DNA from: a virus
Taxonomy: Duplodnaviria; Heunggongvirae; Uroviricota; Caudoviricetes
Virus record (IMG/VR): IMGVR_UViG_2695420596_000007
Location: 1 to 21,599 of that record
Reading direction: 5' to 3' (one strand)
DNA length: 21,599 nt
In this document: one piece after another, positions 5,436 through 17,225 of the stretch
Numbering within the stretch: the stretch's first letter is position 1
Layout of the letters: each line of letters opens with the position of its first letter
Position numbers and translations under genes: made by a program
The notes under the pieces: generated by a model
Database searches by the model: none
What the model was told of the DNA's origin: nothing
Seen by the model: only the letters and a program-made list of their open reading frames with translations

Positions 5436-5512
5436 TTACCGTTGAGGTAATAATTATGCGTATCTGGTTTGATGTCAATAGGTATGAGTTGAAAAAATTA
5501 CCCATTAGGTAA
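5436..5512. promoter_or_regulatory. Two copies of the TTACC-N5-GGTAA palindrome (5436-5450, 5498-5512; centres 62 bp apart) flanking a sigma70-like promoter for the leftward early operon
   Basis: TTACCgttgaGGTAA and TTACCcattaGGTAA read directly; minus-strand -35 TTGACA (plus coordinates 5473-5478) lies between them, with a weaker -10-like TAATTA. Confidence 0.6.
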
Positions 5513-5569: not shown

Positions 5570-6154
5570 TTATTGTTTGTTTTTTTCGTTCTGGTTGATG
5601 ACAAATTCAATGTAACTTTCGATCTTTGCTTTCTCGGTTTCGGGTAACAATGCGTAGCGCGAGCGATCATAGTTGATGGTCGCAGGGTCGTGCGGGTGAA
5701 TCAGTAATTCATAGCCGTGACGCCCGAATGCGGATGCAACATTCTCCAGGGTGGAAATGGAAACGCTGACCTCATTGTTTAACAGGCGGCTAATTGTCAC
5801 CTGGGCGACGCCGGATGCGCGGTGAAGTTTTCCCTGTGTTGAAAGGTCGCGGCTTTCGCTCATCCAGCGTTCCAGGTTGTGAGCCGCCAGCTGACCAATG
5901 TCGCTTGGGCCGACAGGCTGAAAACCTTCCTGAGAAAGCGAACGATCGATATCAAGCCAGTTACGGGGTTTATTGGCGGCAGCTTCAATTTTTCGCGCAA
6001 CCTGGTCGCCGATAACCTTCTTGCCAAGAGCCCAGCGGTTTACCAGATTTGCCTGAGTTCCAAGTTTTTCTGCCATCCGCGTCTGAACACCATTGAATTC
6101 ACGGTCGATCAAGTCGTTGAGATTTTGCCTGCGGACGTCCTGGATACTTTTCAT
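5570..6154 (-). CDS. Prophage repressor candidate: XRE-family protein with two HTH regions and no LexA-like S24 peptidase domain
   Basis: 194-aa ORF; N-terminal HTH (MAEKLGTQANLVNRWALGKK) and a second HTH-like segment (VAQVTISRLLNNEVSVSISTLENVASAFG); no GDSM or Ser-Lys autocleavage signature; divergent from a Cro-like gene. Confidence 0.7.
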   Translation of the reverse strand: MKSIQDVRRQNLNDLIDREFNGVQTRMAEKLGTQANLVNRWALGKKVIGDQVARKIEAAANKPRNWLDIDRSLSQEGFQPVGPSDIGQLAAHNLERWMSESRDLSTQGKLHRASGVAQVTISRLLNNEVSVSISTLENVASAFGRHGYELLIHPHDPATINYDRSRYALLPETEKAKIESYIEFVINQNEKNKQ

Positions 6155-6209
6155 TTTCTGGAAAATCGCCTCATATATGAATCAGTAGATGATTCAATTT
6201 AAAGCAATA

Positions 6210-6272: not shown

Positions 6273-6308
6273 ATATTTATTATCTGAAATAAATATCAGG
6301 CAATAGCT

Positions 6309-6539
6309 ATGAGCGATAACGGACATTTCGATTTCAAAAAGCACTGGCTTGCACTTACTCCGGATGAGCGTGAAGCCTTCGCACAGGAAGCCGGAACGAC
6401 GAGTCACTATATCCAGACTCACTTAACAGGTAAGCGCAAAATGCCAGGTAAAGTATTGATGAATGGGCTTTTTAAAGCCTGTAAAACAAGACAATGGCTG
6501 CGCTCAAAAGCAGAACTGGCATACTTCTTCTACTCATGA
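6309..6539 (+). CDS. Cro-like small DNA-binding regulator
   Basis: 76-aa ORF divergent from the repressor; HTH-like segment EAFAQEAGTTSHYIQTHLTGKRKMP. Confidence 0.55.
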   Translation: MSDNGHFDFKKHWLALTPDEREAFAQEAGTTSHYIQTHLTGKRKMPGKVLMNGLFKACKTRQWLRSKAELAYFFYS

Positions 6540-6560
6540 TATCCAGCCACAACCCTCTGT

Positions 6561-6586
6561 AGACCGCCATCCGGCGGTCTTTTCAT
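6561..6586 (+). terminator. Rho-independent terminator after the Cro-like gene (tR1-like position)
   Basis: Stem AGACCGCC/GGCGGTCT with a 4-nt loop, followed by TTTT. Confidence 0.65.
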
Positions 6587-6594
6587 ATCTATTC

Positions 6595-6609
6595 GTACCT
6601 TAAAGGTAA
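6595..6609. promoter_or_regulatory. Palindrome GTACCttaaaGGTAA (variant of TTACC-N5-GGTAA) just after the terminator
   Basis: Read directly; core TACC-N5-GGTA is perfect. Confidence 0.45.
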
Positions 6610-6689
6610 CAAAAAACCAAATCTGGTTGATCTTTTTTTTGTGTCAGCACAAAATAACCGTAATCCCAATACTAATAACAGGGCTTACC

Positions 6690-6890
6690 ATGGAAATCAT
6701 TACACGTATTGATGCCGCAAAGCGCGGACTTAAACGCTACTACACCGGAAAACCATGTAAGCATGGACATGACAGTGAACGCTGGGTTTACAACGGGCAC
6801 TGTGTTGAGTGCACCATGGAATCAAACCGTCGCATCAGGGCAGAGATTAAGCAGATCATGATTAATTCCTCCCCACAACATTCAAGCTGA
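6690..6890 (+). CDS. Small Cys/His-rich (zinc-ribbon-like) protein; start placed at MEIITRI rather than the listed 6627
   Basis: KPCKHGHDSERWVYNGHCVEC contains a C-x-H..C-x2-C pattern; the listed N-terminal extension looks like non-coding read-through. Confidence 0.4.
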   Translation: MEIITRIDAAKRGLKRYYTGKPCKHGHDSERWVYNGHCVECTMESNRRIRAEIKQIMINSSPQHSS

Positions 6891-9002: not shown

Positions 9003-9632
9003 ATGGAAAGTAATATCAAAGGGTTAGTTTCCGCCGGGCATGAGATGGCTTCGGAACTGAAAGCAGAATGTGGTGCCGTTGATATGCGCAGCGTGGCAAA
9101 GCTGATCAGCGATTTGGCAACCGGTAGCGGTAAAGCTTTGTCTCGTGCTCGATCAGATAAACAGGCCAGACTTCGCGATATTGATCAACGAATCCGGCAG
9201 GCACAAGAACGCCTGGAATTTTCCCGTAACGCGTTGGCACCGCACGAGCCTGGCGGTCAGTTTTTTGAAGCTCAAGCAGAACTGGCTCGGAGACAGCAGG
9301 CAGAAAGTGAACTTAATGCTCAGGCTGTTTCATTCTATAAAACAGCAGAGGTCAGGACGCCAGACGAAGTAGCTCCTTTTGAGCCTGATAAAATATTGCA
9401 ACAGGCAGAACAAAAAATGATGTCAGATCAGGCAGGAGATATTGATCTGCGCATAGCTGAAGACTCGTTGCTTGAATCACCTGACATGATAATCACCGTG
9501 CTGGATGATGATGGTAATCCACAATCGCGCAGTGCGCGTGAAGTACTGGATGAAGCGAACAGGGAAAGTGAGCAGGCAATACAGGATTCCAGCCTGTTTG
9601 ATGTCGCTGTGGCGTGTTTCTTGAGAGGTTAA
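9003..9632 (+). CDS. Hypothetical acidic coiled-coil protein (209 aa)
   Basis: Strong SD (GAGGGTAAAG) before the ATG; no recognisable catalytic motif; highly acidic C-terminal half. Confidence 0.55.
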   Translation: MESNIKGLVSAGHEMASELKAECGAVDMRSVAKLISDLATGSGKALSRARSDKQARLRDIDQRIRQAQERLEFSRNALAPHEPGGQFFEAQAELARRQQAESELNAQAVSFYKTAEVRTPDEVAPFEPDKILQQAEQKMMSDQAGDIDLRIAEDSLLESPDMIITVLDDDGNPQSRSAREVLDEANRESEQAIQDSSLFDVAVACFLRG

Positions 9633-9637
9633 ATTAA

Positions 9638-12112
9638 ATGAGACAGGAATGTATACAAGCGGTCCAGCAGGCGGCGCAGCGCACGTTAACGGCGCGAGAA
9701 ATACAGAACATTGAAGACCGCATTTATCGAAATATGCGCTCCATTGCTCGTGATGACCCGATGTCGTGGCGACAACTTTCCGAATCAGAGCGGCTATATC
9801 GAGCATCACAATTGGCATCTGAAGAATTACAGCGAGAAGCGGCATTAAAGAAACGTCGTGTGGCCCTCACTATAGCCGCACGTCAGAGATTGGATAAATT
9901 TATCAATAGCTATCAAGGGGCTGATGGGAAACTCGGTGCTCTTAACCGTACTATTGCTTTTAATGCAGACGGTAAATCGAATTTCCTCTCTGTTGAGTCC
10001 AGAACAAAAGCCACTCGTGATTATGCATTGAGTCAATTGCAAGAGGCATTTGAAGCAGTTGACCCTCGCTTTTTTGGCCTGTTTGAAGATGAAGCTGGCG
10101 TGCGTGACCTGGTATATGAAATGCGAGGGCAAAATACTGGCAATGCTAAAGCAAGAAAAGGTGCTAAGGCGTGGAGAGAAGTGACAGATCTACTGCGCCG
10201 CCGGTTTAATGATGCTGGTGGGGACATTGGCTATCTCGAAAACTGGGGGATCCCTCAACATCATTCTATGGAAAAGGTTGGGGCGGTATCAAAGGATAAG
10301 TGGGTTAGCGATGTTATAGGTAAGCTGGATCGCAAATATTATATCCGAGCCGATGGACAACTGATGAACGATGCCGAGTTGTCTGCATTTCTTGGAGAGG
10401 CTTATAACACGATCGCTACTGGTGGGCTGAATAAGCTTACTGATACCGGAATGCGAATTTCCGGCGCACGTGCTAACCGTGGTAATGCATCACGACAGAT
10501 ACATTTCAAAGATGCAGATTCCTATCTGCAATATCAGCAACTTTATGGCGATCGCTCTCTATGGGAAATCATGGTCGGTCACCTGGAAGGTATCAGTAAA
10601 GATATTGCACTGGTGGAAACATATGGCCCAAACCCCGATCATGTTTTCCGCTCTCTTCTTGATCAGGTGAAGGCAGAAACGGCAACAGCTAACCCGAATA
10701 AAACCGGTAAAGTCGAGCGGCTGGCGAACAACACAGAGAATCTGTACAACTTTATTTCCGGAAAGACACAGCCTGTAGCGAATCCGCACATCGCGCGATG
10801 GTCTGACAATATCCGCAACTGGCTGGTTGCCAGCAGACTCGGATCCGCGTTGCTGTCATCGTTCTCTGATCTTGGAACCATGTATCTGTCTGCGAAGGTT
10901 ACCAACCTTCCAATGAACCAGTTATTCCGCAACCAGCTTGAAGCTATGGACCCAACGAACCGTACAGAACTTGCGCGGGCGCGCCGCGCTGGACTGGCGA
11001 TGGAATCTCTACTTGGCAGCGTTAACCGCTGGGCGATGGATAATATGGGGCCGTCTGTGTCTCGTTGGGCGGCAACGGCGGTAATGCGTGCCAGTGGGCT
11101 TACAGCATGGTCAGATGCGCACAAGCGCGCCTATGGCGTAACCATGATGGGAAGCTTGGGAGAAGTAGTGTCACGGACACCAGACCTTCGTAGCCTCGAT
11201 GACTCTGATTTTCGTATCCTGAAAAGTAAAGGGATTACTGACACAGACTGGAGCGTATGGAAGCTGGCGCAACAGGAGGACTGGGGGAACGGTAATAATA
11301 CGATGCTGACACCGGAAAGCATTATGCGTATCCCTGATTTAGCAGTTAAACATCTTGGTGAGCCTGAACGCGTGAAATTTGAGGCAATGCGTAAACTGCT
11401 CGGTGCCGTAACTGAAGAAGTTGATATGGCTGTTATTACACCGGGAGCACGTGAGCAACTGATAACCGGTTCTGGTATTCAGCGTGGAACATGGAAGGGT
11501 GAATTAACGAGAAGTGTTTTCCTGTTTAAATCGTTCCCTATCTCGGTAGTTATGCGTCACTGGCATAGAGCTATGGGGATGCCGTCTGCTGGTGGGCGCG
11601 CAGCATATATAGCAACGTTTTTAGCAAGCACAACCATGCTTGGTGCTCTTTCCATGCAGATTACTGATCTTATTAATGGGAGAAGTCCAAAGGAAATGAC
11701 CGGTGACCACATGGTTAAATTCTGGATAAATGCATTTTTAAAAGGTGGTGGGGCAGGGTTGTACGGTGATTTTCTTTTCTCTGATCACACTAGGTACGGA
11801 AGCGGCGCGCTGGCGTCGATGCTTGGCCCGGTAGCTGGTCTGGTTGATGACGTAGTGAAGATTGCTCAGGGCATACCGTTAAATGCTGTGGAAGGGAAGA
11901 ATGAGCAGACTGGTGGTGATCTGGTGAAGCTGGGGAAGGGGCTGATGCCAGGTGCGAATCTCTGGTACTTGAAGGCGGCTCTCGATCACATGATCTTTAA
12001 CCAGATGCAGGAGTATTTTTCACCAGGCTATTTGCGTAAAATGGAGCAACGTTCGAAGAAAGAGTTTAACCAGACATACTGGTGGCGACCTCAGGATGTC
12101 ACTCCGCAATAA
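9638..12112 (+). CDS. Large hypothetical protein (824 aa), function unknown; has a hydrophobic, glycine-rich C-terminal region
   Basis: Long uninterrupted ORF with SD GAGAGG; no Walker A, HExxH or other motif recognised; C-terminal AAYIATFLASTTMLGALSMQI and GGGAGLYGDFLF segments. Confidence 0.6.
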   Translation: MRQECIQAVQQAAQRTLTAREIQNIEDRIYRNMRSIARDDPMSWRQLSESERLYRASQLASEELQREAALKKRRVALTIAARQRLDKFINSYQGADGKLGALNRTIAFNADGKSNFLSVESRTKATRDYALSQLQEAFEAVDPRFFGLFEDEAGVRDLVYEMRGQNTGNAKARKGAKAWREVTDLLRRRFNDAGGDIGYLENWGIPQHHSMEKVGAVSKDKWVSDVIGKLDRKYYIRADGQLMNDAELSAFLGEAYNTIATGGLNKLTDTGMRISGARANRGNASRQIHFKDADSYLQYQQLYGDRSLWEIMVGHLEGISKDIALVETYGPNPDHVFRSLLDQVKAETATANPNKTGKVERLANNTENLYNFISGKTQPVANPHIARWSDNIRNWLVASRLGSALLSSFSDLGTMYLSAKVTNLPMNQLFRNQLEAMDPTNRTELARARRAGLAMESLLGSVNRWAMDNMGPSVSRWAATAVMRASGLTAWSDAHKRAYGVTMMGSLGEVVSRTPDLRSLDDSDFRILKSKGITDTDWSVWKLAQQEDWGNGNNTMLTPESIMRIPDLAVKHLGEPERVKFEAMRKLLGAVTEEVDMAVITPGAREQLITGSGIQRGTWKGELTRSVFLFKSFPISVVMRHWHRAMGMPSAGGRAAYIATFLASTTMLGALSMQITDLINGRSPKEMTGDHMVKFWINAFLKGGGAGLYGDFLFSDHTRYGSGALASMLGPVAGLVDDVVKIAQGIPLNAVEGKNEQTGGDLVKLGKGLMPGANLWYLKAALDHMIFNQMQEYFSPGYLRKMEQRSKKEFNQTYWWRPQDVTPQ

Positions 12113-12121
12113 GGAACAACA

Positions 12122-12535
12122 ATGAAGGAATTATTGCTGTTATCGGTATTTTTGATATCCGCTTGCTCGACATCCTATGATGTTTATGACGGTGTTGATA
12201 AGGCATATTGCGACAAAGTTAAAATGGATTTTTCTCTTGCCAAGACGGCGAAGGATAGTTGTATTGATCACTACGTCAAGACTTATACCAAGCCAGCCTC
12301 ATCGGCATCTGATATTGCTGAAGGTGCTGTGTTTGAGTGTAACAAGGTGATATCCATCGCAGCGAGTTCTTCATACGATGCTGCTGTATGTGCAATGGCT
12401 GAAAGAAACGGCATGTCAGTGCAAAAAATTAATAGCATGATAAGCAGTAATGACGAAGCCAAAATAAGAACTGATATCAGCTCGGTGAAAAAAGATGCCA
12501 TGAACAGAGTTGTAAAATATCAGTCATCTTTATAA
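12122..12535 (+). CDS. Putative lipoprotein (137 aa), function unknown
   Basis: Signal peptide with lipobox-like LISAC at residues 11-15; SD AAGGAA; starts 10 nt after the 824-aa gene. Confidence 0.6.
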   Translation: MKELLLLSVFLISACSTSYDVYDGVDKAYCDKVKMDFSLAKTAKDSCIDHYVKTYTKPASSASDIAEGAVFECNKVISIAASSSYDAAVCAMAERNGMSVQKINSMISSNDEAKIRTDISSVKKDAMNRVVKYQSSL

Positions 12536-12551
12536 GTCGTGACATGTCACA

Positions 12552-12575
12552 GGCCGCTCTTGCGGCCTTGTTTTT
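12552..12575 (+). terminator. Rho-independent terminator ending the rightward operon
   Basis: Stem GGCCGC/GCGGCC with loop tctt, followed by TTGTTTTT. Confidence 0.65.
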
Positions 12576-12614: not shown

Positions 12615-12635
12615 CAAAAAAGCCCGCAGAGCGGG
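12615..12635 (-). terminator. Rho-independent terminator for the leftward membrane-protein pair
   Basis: On the minus strand GCCCGC-tct-GCGGGC followed by TTTTTT. Confidence 0.65.
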
Positions 12636-12640
12636 CTTAT

Positions 12641-12973
12641 TCAGTTATTTACTTTCTTTGGCACTATTGCTGATAATGAGATCATAAAGCCAGTTAGAGC
12701 AGCAATAATTAATGGGAATATGAAAGCATCTGAAGTTCTCAGTGGATTCTTCATATCGAACAGAATAACAATGAAGAATGCGCTGGTTGCAAAAGTAGAT
12801 GATGAATAAACCTCATTCATCTTGTATTGCAACTTATCCAAAGAAAAAGGAGGCGTATCTTTGCAAACGGCATCCCATATCAGATGAACAGCAAGATAAG
12901 CAATGCACAGTATGAAATAAAACCTTGTCAATTGCTGTGCATCTCTGGGCGCAAGCCAAGATAAATCAGGCAT
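12641..12973 (-). CDS. Putative inner-membrane protein (110 aa), translationally coupled to the upstream small peptide
   Basis: Several hydrophobic segments; ATG lies 1 nt after the upstream stop. Confidence 0.5.
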   Translation of the reverse strand: MPDLSWLAPRDAQQLTRFYFILCIAYLAVHLIWDAVCKDTPPFSLDKLQYKMNEVYSSSTFATSAFFIVILFDMKNPLRTSDAFIFPLIIAALTGFMISLSAIVPKKVNN

Positions 12974-12974
12974 T

Positions 12975-13163
12975 TTAGTTGGCTAACTTCTTTGCGGCAT
13001 AGATAGCAGGGAGTGCAACAGCACCAGCTACAGCAAATGCATAGGCTATCCCAGCTGTAACAGTAAAAGCAGGAAGCAGGAAAGATAATCCGCCTGGTAG
13101 GGCAAAGCCTAAGCCCGCTCCGCCAATAATGGCCTTCAGCAATGTAATGATGTTGATTTCCAT
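12975..13163 (-). CDS. Small glycine/alanine-rich membrane peptide (62 aa)
   Basis: MEINIITLLKAIIGGAGLGFALPGGLSFLLPAFTVTAGIAYAFAVAGAVALPAIYAAKKLAN: two predicted TM segments with small-residue-rich motifs; SD GAGGGGG upstream. Confidence 0.5.
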   Translation of the reverse strand: MEINIITLLKAIIGGAGLGFALPGGLSFLLPAFTVTAGIAYAFAVAGAVALPAIYAAKKLAN

Positions 13164-13189
13164 GTTTCCCCCTCATGTAAACTCTCGGT

Positions 13190-13204
13190 TTACCTTTGGG
13201 GTAA
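13190..13204. promoter_or_regulatory. Palindrome TTACCtttggGGTAA upstream of the small membrane peptide gene
   Basis: Read directly. Confidence 0.5.
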
Positions 13205-13269
13205 TAGTACGCTATTCACCTGCAATCTGTACAGAATTATTTAAAGGCACATCCCTGTGCCGCCGCTCG

Positions 13270-13920
13270 TCAGAAGAACCCTGCCTTGTCGTTGATGTAC
13301 TCCGCGTGTGTCTGGATATCACGCAGGCATTTACTCACACCGACGATGTAGCAGAACATGGTGGTCAGCTCCGCCGCCGCGCCCGATACGTCGTGCCCGT
13401 CTTCCTGTAACTTGTTCAGCAGATTCATCAGCAGTGAGTTCTCCGTCAGGCCGAGAACACCAGACGGCGAGTGAATCAGGCTGCGGTAGCCGGGCTTCAG
13501 CGGGGCGCTGTATTCTTTTTTGTCTTCCAGCTTGATCGCCTCCATAATGGCGGGCATGAAGCCTGACAAGACCTTCTCCACTTTTGTTTCTTGTTGTCTT
13601 AAACGTTTCTCGCATTCAATGAAGTAGCGTCGTACCTGACGACCTTTTTCGTTACGCTCGACCATCGCCAGTTCTTTGGCTGTATCGAGGGTGAGGTGGT
13701 AGTCTTTTGCAGGACGTCCTCTGCCTATTTTTTCCCGAACTTGGGAAATAATCATAAAGTCTTGATTTTCAACGAAACCATATTCAGTAATTCGTTCGAC
13801 AATCCACGAAGCAAATCGCTTACCCACATCGAGGAAAGTGTGTAAATCACGGGCATTAACGAGAAGAGCGGTTTCGTTGGATATAGTGCCGTTGAATACG
13901 GGGATGAGTTGAGCGTTCAT
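13270..13920 (-). CDS. Phage antirepressor (N-terminal Ant/Bro-like domain plus C-terminal antirepressor domain)
   Basis: 216-aa ORF; SD GGAGA; its C-terminal region is homologous to the small ORF at 14238-14495. Confidence 0.75.
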   Translation of the reverse strand: MNAQLIPVFNGTISNETALLVNARDLHTFLDVGKRFASWIVERITEYGFVENQDFMIISQVREKIGRGRPAKDYHLTLDTAKELAMVERNEKGRQVRRYFIECEKRLRQQETKVEKVLSGFMPAIMEAIKLEDKKEYSAPLKPGYRSLIHSPSGVLGLTENSLLMNLLNKLQEDGHDVSGAAAELTTMFCYIVGVSKCLRDIQTHAEYINDKAGFF

Positions 13921-14078
13921 TATGGCGTCTCCACTTAGCGAATTACATCACCACCGCTGAGACCAATCAGATGGTGGTGAACTGAACGGAGTTGGTCTTA
14001 CCGGCCTAAGTGGTACCGGCGTCCTTTCGGACCCCCATTCAGCCCACCATAATTCTGGCATGACTGTGCTATACGCAT

Positions 14079-14101
14079 AAAAAAACCACGTCTGGCGTGG
14101 T
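14079..14101 (-). terminator. Rho-independent terminator on the minus strand between the two antirepressor genes
   Basis: Stem ACCACG/CGTGGT with a 5-nt loop, followed on the minus strand by a run of 6 T. Confidence 0.6.
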
Positions 14102-14191
14102 ATGCGCCACTTAGTAATCCGGGAGACCAATCCCGGCACTGGATTTTGCCAGTGCCCGATTACTATGGCACAAGAGGAGTGCAATGTAAAT

Positions 14192-14690: not shown

Positions 14691-17225
14691 ATGACGGTCT
14701 CAACCGAAGTTGACCACAACGAATACACCGGCAACGGCGTTACGACATCGTTTCCGTATACCTTCCGCATTTTCAACAAATCCGACCTGGTTGTTCAGGT
14801 GGTTGACCTTGATGAAAATATCGCTGTGCTGGCTCTTGATACTGATTACACTGTCACTGGGGCTGGTGGATATAACGGCGGTAATGTAATTCTGTCGAAG
14901 GCGTTAGCTAACGGTTATCAGATTTCTATATCACGAGAGCTACCAGTTACGCAGGAAACTGATCTGCGAAATCAGGGAAAGTTTTTCGCTGAGGTGCATG
15001 AAGACGCGTTCGATAAGTTAACGATGCTGATCCAGCAGGTTCGAAGTTGGTTTGGCCTGGCACTGCGCAAGCCATCATTTGTGGCAAACTATTACGATGC
15101 TTTGAACAATTACATCCGAAATTTGCGCGATCCTTCAAAGCCTCAAGATGCAGCAACGAAAAATTATGTTGATTCTGTTGTTGATACAAATTTAAGTAGA
15201 ACATTAAGAGTACCAGAGCCAATAAATTCTTTCCCAGGCGCCGAAACGCGGGCAAATATGATGCCTGCCTTCGATAGTCAAGGGAATGCTGTTCTGGTTC
15301 TACCCCCATCAGGTTCTGCATCGGATGTTTTGCTACAACTTGCAAGCGCCGAAGATGGGAAAGGCGATTCACTGGTTGCAGTCAGGCAACCCATTACTGG
15401 TGCTTTATCTCGCACTCAGCACGATAAAAATCAGGATTTCATCACACCACAGGACTTTGGTGTAAAGATGGATGGTACTGACTCTACTGATGCGATCAAC
15501 GCTTTCGTGGAGTATGTGAACGCGATACCTAATACTGATGGAATTCCTGTTGGAGTGCTATTCCCACCAGGTACAATCTCATATTCTAAAGACATGCATT
15601 TCACCAGACCGGTAAGAATTATCTGCGAAGGAACTGTATTCCATTACTTAGGCTCAGGAAACGCCTTTAACATGGGCCCATATGATCTAAGCGGAGACTA
15701 CAACGGAGCTACTGGTAAGACCCCGTTTAATAAGCACTACAGTATTGAAGGTGCTGTTTTTAAGGGGGGGGCAACATCAGGATATGCAATAAATTTTGCT
15801 CATTGGGTAACTTATTGCGATGTATCTAATTGCGAATTCCGTGCGTTTGGCGGAGATGGCTCCTGGGCTGTTAATGCCGAATTTAACAACTGGAGGGTAT
15901 CGGTAAGGGATTGCTTGTTCGAGGCCCATACCGATTTCATAGCTGATAGGGTGAATACACGGAACTTTGTGCGCTGCCCTGGTTACTACGAAGATCATGT
16001 TCTTGGTAAAGTTGTTGATCTTTGGAGTACATTGTTGACGGCAACAAACAATAAGGTGGAAGGTGTTGGCTGGTCGCGTGGCGGGATAGCTTACTGGATT
16101 AGCGGTTGGCGCACGGTTATTGAAGGAGGAGCAAACAATGGCATGCTTACTGATGTTATCATTTCAGCTGGTTGTGCAGATGTAACACTTCTAAATTTCT
16201 ACTCAGAGAAACCATTTGGCCCAGAGGAAGGGGAGGTAATTAAATGCATCCAGCTATCATATGATGATGACCCATATTTTACAGGCAGTAAGGCCGATGG
16301 CGGTGCCGGAATGGTTGATAATGGTGCATCTACATTTGTAAAAAGATTAACAGTAAATGGTAGTTATGCAAATATGGGGCAACCAAATCATGTCAGCCAG
16401 TTCATACACTTTTCTCAAAGTGTTGCATTGGAAAACTTCTGCATTGATAAAGCAACATTCACCCATTATTACTATCCAATTGTTACCCAGCCAGAAATAC
16501 CAGGACATCGTAATTGGTATATTGGGGATGTAAGATTTGATGGGGATTTAGATAAGATAAGCTATCTTATAGAAACTCAATATGCTGGAGTTTATAAACC
16601 ATCATATAGCTCAAGGGTAAAAAATCTTTTAAAAGTTTTTGACGCGTCATCTATAGTTACAGGTTTTGACTCATCAGCACCAGTAAATACTAATTTTGGA
16701 ACTGTCGGTATATCAGCTATATCTGATGGAACCGGAGGTTCAATAAGATTGACAAAGCGAGCAACTAATAATACCTCGGAAGGAGGATATGAACGCAACA
16801 GATTAGATATGCAAAGAAATGCTTTTCAGCTTTCGTGCATAACGCCAGCAACTAGTCAAACTTATTTACAGATGGTTTTTGAAGTTGATATTAGCCCTTC
16901 AAAAATTCAAGGAGTTACTGCTTGCTTGTCATTTATAGCAAAAAGTTACACAAGTGGAGGTGTTTTGTTAACTGGAACGATAGTTTCTCCATCTGGTATA
17001 AATACTGCAGGTGACACGGATGTACTGGTTGCGTCTGATGGAAATTTCTATAGATATTTTATACATTTCCGTGTAGAACCAATGACTTTGGGGGCGAATT
17101 TAGATTCGCCTGATAAAGTATTGGTAAACATTAATCTTCCGGTTGGTAAGGTTTTTGATGTTGACTTGGCGTCACTTGTATTTACTATAGGTGACATCGC
17201 TTATCCTTTAGCTGCATGTTACTAG
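14691..17225 (+). CDS. Tailspike / tail fibre with a T7 gp17-type N-terminal adaptor domain and a central beta-helix-like (candidate depolymerase) domain
   Basis: 844-aa ORF; N-terminus EYTGNGVTTSFPYTF..DLVVQVVD..DTDYTVTG parallels the T7 tail-fibre N-terminal domain as recalled; repetitive G/N/S/T-rich central region typical of pectate-lyase-fold tailspikes; SD GGAG. Confidence 0.8.
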   Translation: MTVSTEVDHNEYTGNGVTTSFPYTFRIFNKSDLVVQVVDLDENIAVLALDTDYTVTGAGGYNGGNVILSKALANGYQISISRELPVTQETDLRNQGKFFAEVHEDAFDKLTMLIQQVRSWFGLALRKPSFVANYYDALNNYIRNLRDPSKPQDAATKNYVDSVVDTNLSRTLRVPEPINSFPGAETRANMMPAFDSQGNAVLVLPPSGSASDVLLQLASAEDGKGDSLVAVRQPITGALSRTQHDKNQDFITPQDFGVKMDGTDSTDAINAFVEYVNAIPNTDGIPVGVLFPPGTISYSKDMHFTRPVRIICEGTVFHYLGSGNAFNMGPYDLSGDYNGATGKTPFNKHYSIEGAVFKGGATSGYAINFAHWVTYCDVSNCEFRAFGGDGSWAVNAEFNNWRVSVRDCLFEAHTDFIADRVNTRNFVRCPGYYEDHVLGKVVDLWSTLLTATNNKVEGVGWSRGGIAYWISGWRTVIEGGANNGMLTDVIISAGCADVTLLNFYSEKPFGPEEGEVIKCIQLSYDDDPYFTGSKADGGAGMVDNGASTFVKRLTVNGSYANMGQPNHVSQFIHFSQSVALENFCIDKATFTHYYYPIVTQPEIPGHRNWYIGDVRFDGDLDKISYLIETQYAGVYKPSYSSRVKNLLKVFDASSIVTGFDSSAPVNTNFGTVGISAISDGTGGSIRLTKRATNNTSEGGYERNRLDMQRNAFQLSCITPATSQTYLQMVFEVDISPSKIQGVTACLSFIAKSYTSGGVLLTGTIVSPSGINTAGDTDVLVASDGNFYRYFIHFRVEPMTLGANLDSPDKVLVNINLPVGKVFDVDLASLVFTIGDIAYPLAACY

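Follow-up and report, generated by a model that had tools for sequence, protein, structure and literature searches.

An Escherichia coli prophage of the phiV10/epsilon15 type, genus Uetakevirus, carries two short adjoining genes, here called pepA and protB, that code for a hydrophobic peptide of 62 amino acids and a membrane protein of 110 amino acids. It was found in the IMG/VR virus record IMGVR_UViG_2695420596_000007, of which positions 1 to 21,599, the whole stretch of DNA analysed, are called the window below. Comparison of many loci indicates that the two genes constitute an obligate, translationally coupled pair, a conserved and mobile two-gene module, which Uetakevirus prophages carry as cargo in a slot after their isrK, C4 and antirepressor genes. 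As to its function, we favour, with a probability of about 0.4, the reading that the peptide forms a membrane-active assembly under the control of the repressor and that its coupled partner gates or neutralises this assembly. An earlier note, made from the letters of the window alone, had described a self-contained regulated unit resembling a toxin with its immunity protein or a phage exclusion system. The unit is indeed complete, with an operator, a strong Shine-Dalgarno sequence, two coupled genes and a terminator; the toxin-immunity or exclusion interpretation is a reasonable hypothesis. The elements of the unit, and the stem-loop that precedes it, are as follows:

12975..13163, minus strand: pepA, 62 amino acids, ATG start, hydrophobic and rich in glycine and alanine
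12641..12973, minus strand: protB, 110 amino acids, ATG start, membrane protein
13246..13261, minus strand: stem-loop GGCACA-GGGA-TGTGCC followed by TTTAAATAATT, directly after the antirepressor stop codon
13204..13233, minus strand: promoter-like sequence, TGTACA (13233-13228), an 18-nucleotide spacer and TACTAT (13209-13204), by reading of the sequence
13204..13190, minus strand as read: operator palindrome TTACC-N5-GGTAA, TTACCCCAAAGGTAA, by motif scan
13166..13204, minus strand: inverted repeat and predicted RNA hairpin, by repeat scan and minimum-energy folds
13168..13174, minus strand: Shine-Dalgarno sequence GAGGGGG, 4 nucleotides ahead of the pepA ATG
12638..12620, minus strand: intrinsic terminator AAGCCCGC-TCT-GCGGGCTT followed by TTTTGTG, ending the unit

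The coupled genes pepA and protB

The order given in the earlier note, a 62-residue peptide followed 1 nucleotide later by a 110-residue protein, was borne out, with both genes on the minus strand. PepA is rich in glycine, alanine, leucine and isoleucine, as that note had said; its "almost entirely" is a mild overstatement, since these four residues make up 63% of the sequence, and 79% once valine, phenylalanine and proline are added. The grand average of hydropathy (GRAVY) is 1.33, and there are two hydrophobic blocks. An AlphaFold2 model made with 16 homologues has helices at residues 5-21 and 25-61, with a predicted local distance difference test (pLDDT) score of 81.6. Two transmembrane (TM) helices, as proposed earlier, are thus plausible. 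A helical-wheel projection of helix 1 places bulky hydrophobic residues (I5, I6, L8, L9, I12, I13 and F20) on one side and small or polar residues (N4, T7, K10, A11, G14, G15, G17 and A21) on the other, and it is the small/polar face that is conserved in the alignment. Helix 2 is rich in alanine, and KK is found at the C-terminus of the peptide, which ends in KKLAN.

The partner was said to span the membrane several times, and the predicted model of ProtB agrees with this in having three long helices (residues 12-36, 45-72 and 82-103; pLDDT 73.7). Its invariant residues include H30, D34, D73 and N76-P77-L78-R79, and its length ranges from 104 to 116 amino acids across the loci examined. PepA matches PHROG 13406 and ProtB matches PHROG 36716, both families whose function is not known. 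In an alignment profile search of 1.84 billion representative proteins, the peptide family proved narrow, with about 10 true clusters; the same search gave no link to known families and no fusion proteins, and its long matches were of low complexity.

Between lineages, with synonymous sites at or near saturation, the ratio of nonsynonymous to synonymous substitution rates (dN/dS) of the peptide is 0.03-0.22. Homologues of both proteins are found in Escherichia, Klebsiella, Enterobacter, Kosakonia, Cronobacter, Obesumbacterium, Raoultella, Salmonella, Citrobacter, Serratia, Yersinia, Sodalis and Aeromonas. The low dN/dS of the peptide and the conserved homologues in several genera show that pepA and protB are genuine genes rather than chance open reading frames (ORFs).

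The linkage of the two genes is strict. The peptide gene lies directly upstream of the partner gene in all 17 IMG/VR phage contigs with enough upstream DNA, and at each locus examined for which upstream sequence was available. In the window a single nucleotide (12974) separates the pepA stop from the protB start, and protB has no Shine-Dalgarno sequence of its own. The junction reads TAA-A-ATG in prophages, TAA-G-GTG in Serratia and TAA-A-TTG in Yersinia; an ATGA overlap is found in an Aeromonas plasmid, an 8-nucleotide gap in Sodalis and a 0-nucleotide gap in one viral contig. Because the spacing is kept while the start codon changes, and because protB lacks its own Shine-Dalgarno sequence, translation of protB by termination-reinitiation is indicated. 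ProtB would accordingly be made only when PepA is made, probably at a lower level.

Operator, leader and terminator

How is the pair controlled? The palindrome TTACC-N5-GGTAA occurs in eight exact copies in the window against 0.02 expected, and none of 100 shuffles reached eight. These 15-bp sites begin at 5436, 5498, 6210, 8517, 8579, 13190, 14192 and 14572. All of them are intergenic and lie ahead of transcription units or beside predicted promoters: two between the gene for a CI-like repressor and the leftward early operon, one between the repressor gene and a cro-like gene, two ahead of a RusA-like gene, and one each at pepA, at the isrK promoter and in the gap between the gp19-like and tailspike genes. 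The operators at 5436, 5498 and 6210 thereby surround the repressor gene of the prophage:

5570..6154, minus strand: CI-like repressor gene, 194 amino acids, with matches to PHROG repressors and regulators

The RefSeq record of epsilon15 annotates the same motif (ATTACCTGTAAGGTAAT) as a repressor-binding site in a protein_bind feature, and the 194-residue CI-like protein is presumed to bind the eight palindromes. The operator-bearing upstream region claimed in the earlier note is genuine. It also recurs with the pair elsewhere: an exact operator lies at most 80 nucleotides upstream of the peptide start in 15 of the 17 IMG/VR contigs that have the two genes adjacent. A pattern scan of prophage loci (L numbers are locus labels) located an exact operator upstream of the pair in 11 (L001, L007-L009, L013, L028, L029 and L032-L035); a further copy upstream of the pair was seen on reading the sequence of L037, and L010, L014 and L036 have degenerate versions only. 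The operator census, the epsilon15 annotation and the conserved operator upstream of the pair together suggest that the unit belongs to the phage repressor regulon. In epsilon15 itself (L011), a second, unannotated TTACC-N5-GGTAA lies at 12705-12719, in the interval separating gp22/gp21 from the lysis operon; either unit, or both, may be under its control.

The operator at pepA overlaps the last base of the -10-like hexamer TACTAT, after which the minus strand reads TACCCCAAAGGTAA, as well as the predicted transcription start at about 13197. With the repressor operator lying over the proposed promoter, the unit would be silent in a stable lysogen and, we infer, on at derepression. The -10 hexamer and operator are arranged in the same way at an upstream promoter-like sequence, TTGCAA-17-TATATT, which lies in the isrK region and abuts its operator. 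At isrK the palindrome abuts the -35 of a promoter whose start matches the 5′ end of isrK; its centre lies near -44, an arrangement that would allow activation rather than repression.

Downstream, the strong terminator predicted in the earlier note lies just outside the segment 12641-13204 to which the unit had been assigned, with a stem of 8 bp, six of them GC pairs, and then a T-run. Upstream, the stem-loop that directly follows the antirepressor gene (ant) may be a weak terminator or an insulator between ant and the cassette. Its Klebsiella counterpart reads GGCGC-AGGGAA-GCGCC followed by TTTGAAT, and phiv142-3 has the same element. Since the U-tract of this stem-loop is poor, some read-through from ant into the pair is likely.

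The leader can also fold. The predicted hairpin has an inner GTAAAC/GTTTAC stem, closed on the outside by pairing of CCCC (13202-13199) with the Shine-Dalgarno GGGG; in other lineages the outer pairing is kept and the inner stems differ, for example TTCAAC/GTTGAA for GTAAAC/GTTTAC. With a start at about 13197, the CCCC would be present only in RNA that reads through from ant. As a matter of speculation, the read-through RNA might be translationally masked and the RNA from the unit's own promoter not.

It could be argued that the pair has no promoter of its own and forms the distal end of the isrK-C4-ant operon, in which case the palindrome would serve solely to hide the ribosome-binding site in an RNA hairpin, or as a 3′ element of ant. 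The promoter scanner calls nothing above its threshold in the 106-bp gap, the poor U-tract makes read-through likely, the leader can pair CCCC with the Shine-Dalgarno sequence, and transcription from the Gifsy-1 isrK promoter yields a polycistronic RNA that extends across the antirepressor gene (PMC4825925). However, the palindrome exactly repeats a motif that has eight copies in the window and is annotated as a repressor site in epsilon15, and the chromosomal and plasmid copies of the pair stand alone. Furthermore, in the prophage of L028/L029 the gene upstream of the pair is a divergent pRha antirepressor gene, yet operator and pair are both present; with its upstream gene on the opposite strand, the pair must be transcribed on its own there. 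We regard a purely distal-operon origin of the transcript as improbable, while noting that the own-promoter and read-through modes are not mutually exclusive.

The cargo slot and its distribution

The prophage in the window, whose insertion site adjoins yfgI/yfgH, is defective. The ORF of 209 amino acids at 9003-9632 is a fusion product, with 93% identity between its residues 32-209 and residues 423-600 of phiV10 p19 and with matches to the unrelated PHROGs 250 and 492 in roughly its first 70 residues. It is followed by an ORF (9638-12112) that shares 97% identity with phiV10 p20, so the genes from terminase to tail have been lost. The ejection protein, the accessory region, the tailspike gene and the lysis genes remain. 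The accessory region, which contains the pair, separates the last of the ejection-protein genes from the tailspike gene (14691-17225); the ejection protein near the pair is an 824-amino acid gp17/p20 homologue. Other features of the prophage that bear on the pair are:

14079-14155, minus strand: isrK, Rfam 67.7 bits, above the gathering threshold
13970-14054, minus strand: C4 antisense RNA, Rfam 61.2 bits, above the gathering threshold
13270-13920, minus strand: ant, AntA/BRO antirepressor gene, Pfam AntA 97 bits
~18.5-20.3 kb: lysis cassette of two holin-family genes, a GH19 endolysin gene and a spanin gene

Together isrK, C4 and ant (13270..14155, minus strand) form a control module like P1 immI (c4-icd-ant) and Gifsy-1 isrK-orf45-anrP-isrJ within a Uetakevirus prophage, and the pair lies directly downstream of it. 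At the equivalent position Gifsy-1 holds IsrJ (PMC4825925). Neither of those loci has a membrane-protein pair, whereas here a separate operator and predicted promoter intervene between ant and the pair.

Is the pair a fixed part of this module? Comparison of close relatives shows that it is cargo, present or absent at the same position. PhiV10 has no such slot, its antirepressor gene running straight to a terminator, and phiv142-3 shares the stem-loop after ant, the promoter-like sequence and the operator with the window but continues with different genes. The GC content falls to 0.37-0.43 within the cargo segment, and the cargo-specific segment 12612-13184, which includes the terminator, occurs in only 19 of 5426 complete E. 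coli genomes. Morons are independent promoter-gene-terminator cargo units of temperate phages such as lambda and HK97, and the classical ones are expressed in the lysogen. The cassette resembles them in lying between conserved backbone genes, in varying among relatives, in having its own terminator and in its lower GC content. It differs in that an exact copy of the prophage repressor operator overlaps its predicted promoter, so that it is probably repressed in the lysogen.

In phiv142-3 (L002), a 193-amino acid ORF at 6291-6872 on the minus strand, in the same cargo slot, spans the annotated Orf9 and Orf10, and the GenBank annotation may split, or miss, one real gene. In L001 (strain SCZE5), at 12026-12187, and in L002, at 6037-6198, the pair or other cargo is separated from the convergent late operon by a 53-amino acid signal-peptide ORF (MKKAFAALFVLLSLVASTQAFA…). 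It is absent from the window, which accounts for an indel of about 190 bp in the two-piece alignment.

The pair is not confined to intact prophages. A tblastn search of 50,697 GenBank phage records gave no match for either protein, and the phage-borne copies are known only from prophages and IMG/VR contigs. In Serratia fonticola the pair lies beside guaA, the attachment region for these phages. A few prophage remnants are left around it in Serratia L003 and L005; in L004 and L006 there is no other prophage remnant, and guaA begins 59 nucleotides past the partner stop. In L031 the pair occurs in a guaA-adjacent island with HTH_3, HTH_35 and a P-loop protein. A 4.9-kb non-mobilisable qnrS2 plasmid of Aeromonas veronii (L027, NZ_CP102109.1) carries the pair, unannotated, at 1859-2409; a fragment resembling an addiction-module antidote lies at 613-822 of the same plasmid.

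The window has a second variable cargo slot. The last gene of the late operon is a 137-amino acid ORF on the plus strand (12122-12535) with a lipoprotein-type signal (…LISAC) and its own terminator at 12551-12568. Its position is taken in other prophages by a 283-amino acid secreted protein, by proteins of 115-126 or 186-204 amino acids, or by a Rap1a-family (type VI secretion system immunity) protein, the comparison covering L001, L007-L010, L032, L033, L036 and L037.

Possible functions of the pair

Similarity searches do not name a function. Pfam and NCBIfam scans of both proteins gave no match that identifies either, the only match of ProtB, to PgaD, being insignificant; PADLOC-DB v2 gave no family at E <= 10 for either; sequence-profile searches of the PDB gave one chance FliR segment only; and a fold search gave no match identifying either protein. 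A literature search by RefSeq protein accessions found nothing.

An outline of how the pair might work is as follows. An accessory, moron-like transcription unit in the Uetakevirus slot downstream of the isrK-C4-antirepressor module would be driven by a weak sigma-70-like promoter overlapped by the phage repressor operator. It would be switched on once repression is lost, by induction, by fresh infection or through an antirepressor. One mRNA would then give two proteins, PepA from the strong Shine-Dalgarno sequence and ProtB by termination-reinitiation 1 nucleotide downstream. PepA may oligomerise in the inner membrane through the small-residue faces of its helices to form a permeabilising or ion-conducting assembly, and ProtB may bind PepA within the bilayer and gate or neutralise it, so that the module would act as a membrane effector plus antidote. 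After derepression the phage could benefit by excluding or aborting competitors or by taking over the energetics of the host; on plasmids and in decaying prophages the module could also serve as a retention or addiction cassette.

Several observations favour this effector/antidote reading. The pair is mobile across prophage, plasmid and island contexts and its expression appears to be tightly controlled. It outlives decayed prophages, as in Serratia L006, and is kept in the defective prophage of the window. Helix 1 is amphipathic with a face of small residues, and there are precedents among membrane toxins (PMC11630599, PMC12648545). We also count towards effector-like behaviour the leader structure occluding the Shine-Dalgarno sequence, which is conserved with varying inner stems.

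The nearest of these precedents are membrane toxins neutralised by membrane immunity proteins, namely the ionophore CdiA-CT/CdiI of contact-dependent inhibition (CDI) and colicin A with its immunity protein, in which neutralisation is by helix-helix contact inside the bilayer (PMC11630599). There, as in pepA-protB, the gene of the effector precedes an adjacent partner gene, both encode hydrophobic membrane proteins built of helices, and small-residue faces resemble glycine zippers. The CDI ionophores are five-helix bundles delivered from outside and CdiI proteins are two-helix hairpins; the CDI pairs are highly polymorphic, with about 30% identity within groups (PMC11630599). In contrast, pepA-protB is strongly conserved, has no delivery domain or export system, and shows no sequence or profile similarity to them. 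Small membrane toxins that stabilise prophages also exist, such as BsrG and CD toxins (PMC12648545). Like the type I toxins (Hok, TisB, ZorO, BsrG, CD), PepA is a small hydrophobic peptide, probably of the inner membrane, whose 5′ leader can mask the Shine-Dalgarno sequence and which is carried on prophages, plasmids and chromosomes. It differs from them in having two helices, not one, and in being always followed at the examined loci by a coupled protein partner of 104-116 amino acids. No antisense RNA antitoxin is evident: Rfam gave no family at the gathering threshold over the pair, and the pair has promoter-like sites on the plus strand at 12648-12685, no plus-strand terminator within it and no compact convergent promoter-plus-terminator unit. 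An identity as a type I toxin was rejected because a protein partner is a constant companion of the peptide and no antisense RNA is evident, although a novel small RNA of that kind is conceivable.

Two further identities were tried and rejected. A holin or pinholin is contradicted by the position of the pair outside the lysis cassette, by a C-terminus that is only KKLAN, not a charged tail, and by the lack of a Pfam holin match. The other was an O-antigen polymerase inhibitor of the epsilon15 gp22 or D3 Iap type. In the seroconversion module of epsilon15, of the same genus, a gene for a small two-TM peptide (gp22, the alpha-polymerase inhibitor, 66 amino acids) adjoins one for a membrane protein, both oriented against the late genes, with a TTACC-N5-GGTAA site nearby. 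However, that slot is a different one, between the tailspike and lysis genes; gp22 is unrelated in sequence and has a charged C-terminus; its partner gp21 is a 10-TM protein of the O-antigen ligase family (a Wzy-like polymerase), not a 3-TM protein of 110 residues; and no wzy-like gene lies near the pair.

A number of observations weigh against the effector/antidote reading. Neither protein has sequence, profile or fold kinship to any toxin, immunity, holin or defence family. Both are strongly conserved and not diversifying, unlike the pairs of toxin and immunity protein that evolve in an arms race. The peptide-first order with reinitiation coupling would leave the partner less abundant than the peptide, a poor fit for an antidote that has to act stoichiometrically. 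In Serratia fonticola L003 and L005, the partner gene has lost 13 bp within the part that codes for helix 1 (at about 6250), which shifts its frame while the peptide is intact, although an out-of-frame ATG at 6205 could restore a 104-amino acid product with an altered N-terminus and every invariant residue retained. The pair is also found in the core chromosome of about 10 Yersinia species (eight in one search, plus Y. bercovieri and the L030 genome) and of Sodalis, at a syntenic locus between a CorA-family gene and an mppA-like SBP_bac_5 gene with no mobile genes nearby. As for its control, the promoter-like site upstream of pepA matches 8 of 12 consensus positions and falls under the threshold of the promoter scanner, and the leader hairpin has a modest z of about -1.5. 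RNAalifold on the leader alignment recovered only the invariant operator arms and no covariation, which makes the RNA-hairpin reading secondary to the DNA-operator reading.

Many of these points are better accommodated if the pair is a benign hetero-oligomeric complex of the inner membrane, composed of many small subunits and one 3-TM subunit, for example an ion or solute channel or a protectant against membrane stress, neither protein being toxic. Such a complex would have originated in the Yersiniaceae chromosome, from which phages and plasmids picked it up as fitness cargo. The syntenic core locus in many Yersinia species and Sodalis, the very strong purifying selection on both proteins and the natural partner frameshift beside an intact peptide all agree with this, as do the invariant charged or polar residues inside the partner helices (H30, D34, D73 and N76-P77-L78-R79); by gene order and coupling, the small subunit should outnumber the other, much as in ring-plus-stator complexes. 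On the other hand, control by the repressor operator implies that the genes are off in lysogens, which is unusual for cargo that serves host fitness; the pair also rides on a very small resistance plasmid and, where prophages have decayed, is the last part of them to persist; and neither protein matches a transporter or channel family. The benign complex thus fits the counter-points better, and the repressor control and plasmid carriage less well, than does the effector/antidote reading, and we consider it nearly as likely. Another non-toxic function would be superinfection exclusion, in which the pair, expressed early after derepression or infection, blocks the ejection or entry of competitor DNA at the inner membrane. 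T4 Imm/Sp and P22 SieA block DNA ejection or entry of competing phages in this way. The accessory region beside the ejection-protein and tailspike genes is where Uetakeviruses keep host-surface and exclusion cargo, repressor control would suit an early gene, and both products are predicted membrane proteins. Yet phage-specific exclusion is a less obvious role for a pair that also resides on a small plasmid and in the core chromosomes of Yersinia and Sodalis, exclusion proteins usually evolve fast whereas PepA and ProtB are highly conserved, and there is no PADLOC or Pfam match; nor could exclusion protect the lysogen if the unit is repressed there. It seems to us quite unlikely.

The peptide also has some features of a class II microcin-like bacteriocin, with MEINIITLLKAIIGG as a double-glycine leader, a hydrophobic mature peptide of 47 amino acids and a downstream immunity protein. 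IIGG ends the N-terminal part at residue 15, positions -4 and -7 are hydrophobic, the rest is rich in glycine and alanine, and a membrane protein gene occupies the position of an immunity gene. But the GG (residues 14-15) is not conserved, being AG in Sodalis, Klebsiella sp. BIGb0407, Aeromonas and several phage contigs, and the acidic residue at -8 (E) and the hydrophobic one at -12 (L) expected in such a leader are missing. No C39-peptidase ATP-binding cassette (ABC) exporter or membrane-fusion protein was found in any context examined (prophage, guaA-island, Yersinia, plasmid and L031), there is no bacteriocin match in Pfam or NCBIfam, and the "mature" part has no hydrophilic receptor-binding region. 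This identity is largely refuted and can be given hardly any weight. At the opposite extreme, the effector/antidote reading may be extended to a new kind of all-membrane, protein-protein toxin-antidote module, a peptide pore with a reinitiation-coupled 3-TM neutraliser, wired to the repressor as a "dead-man switch", serving as an addiction module on small plasmids and domesticated in Yersinia. Whatever lifts repression would then lead to membrane depolarisation, be it the antirepressor of a superinfecting phage, damage to the DNA or, as a prophage decays, the disappearance of its repressor gene. In this full form we think it unlikely.

What would the pair mean for the phages and bacteria that carry it? 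The operator census offers a map of the likely repressor regulon of the phiV10/epsilon15-like phages. If PepA is a membrane-active effector controlled by its partner, the pair would represent a new family of protein-protein membrane toxin/partner modules, common to prophages, small plasmids and enterobacterial chromosomes, and an example of cargo under direct control of the prophage repressor rather than expressed in the lysogen. If it is a benign complex, it would still be an uncharacterised and strongly conserved pair of small membrane proteins of Yersinia, Serratia and Klebsiella. As such an effector, the pair would bear on how temperate phages time their membrane-directed functions and on why some genes outlive the prophage that brought them.

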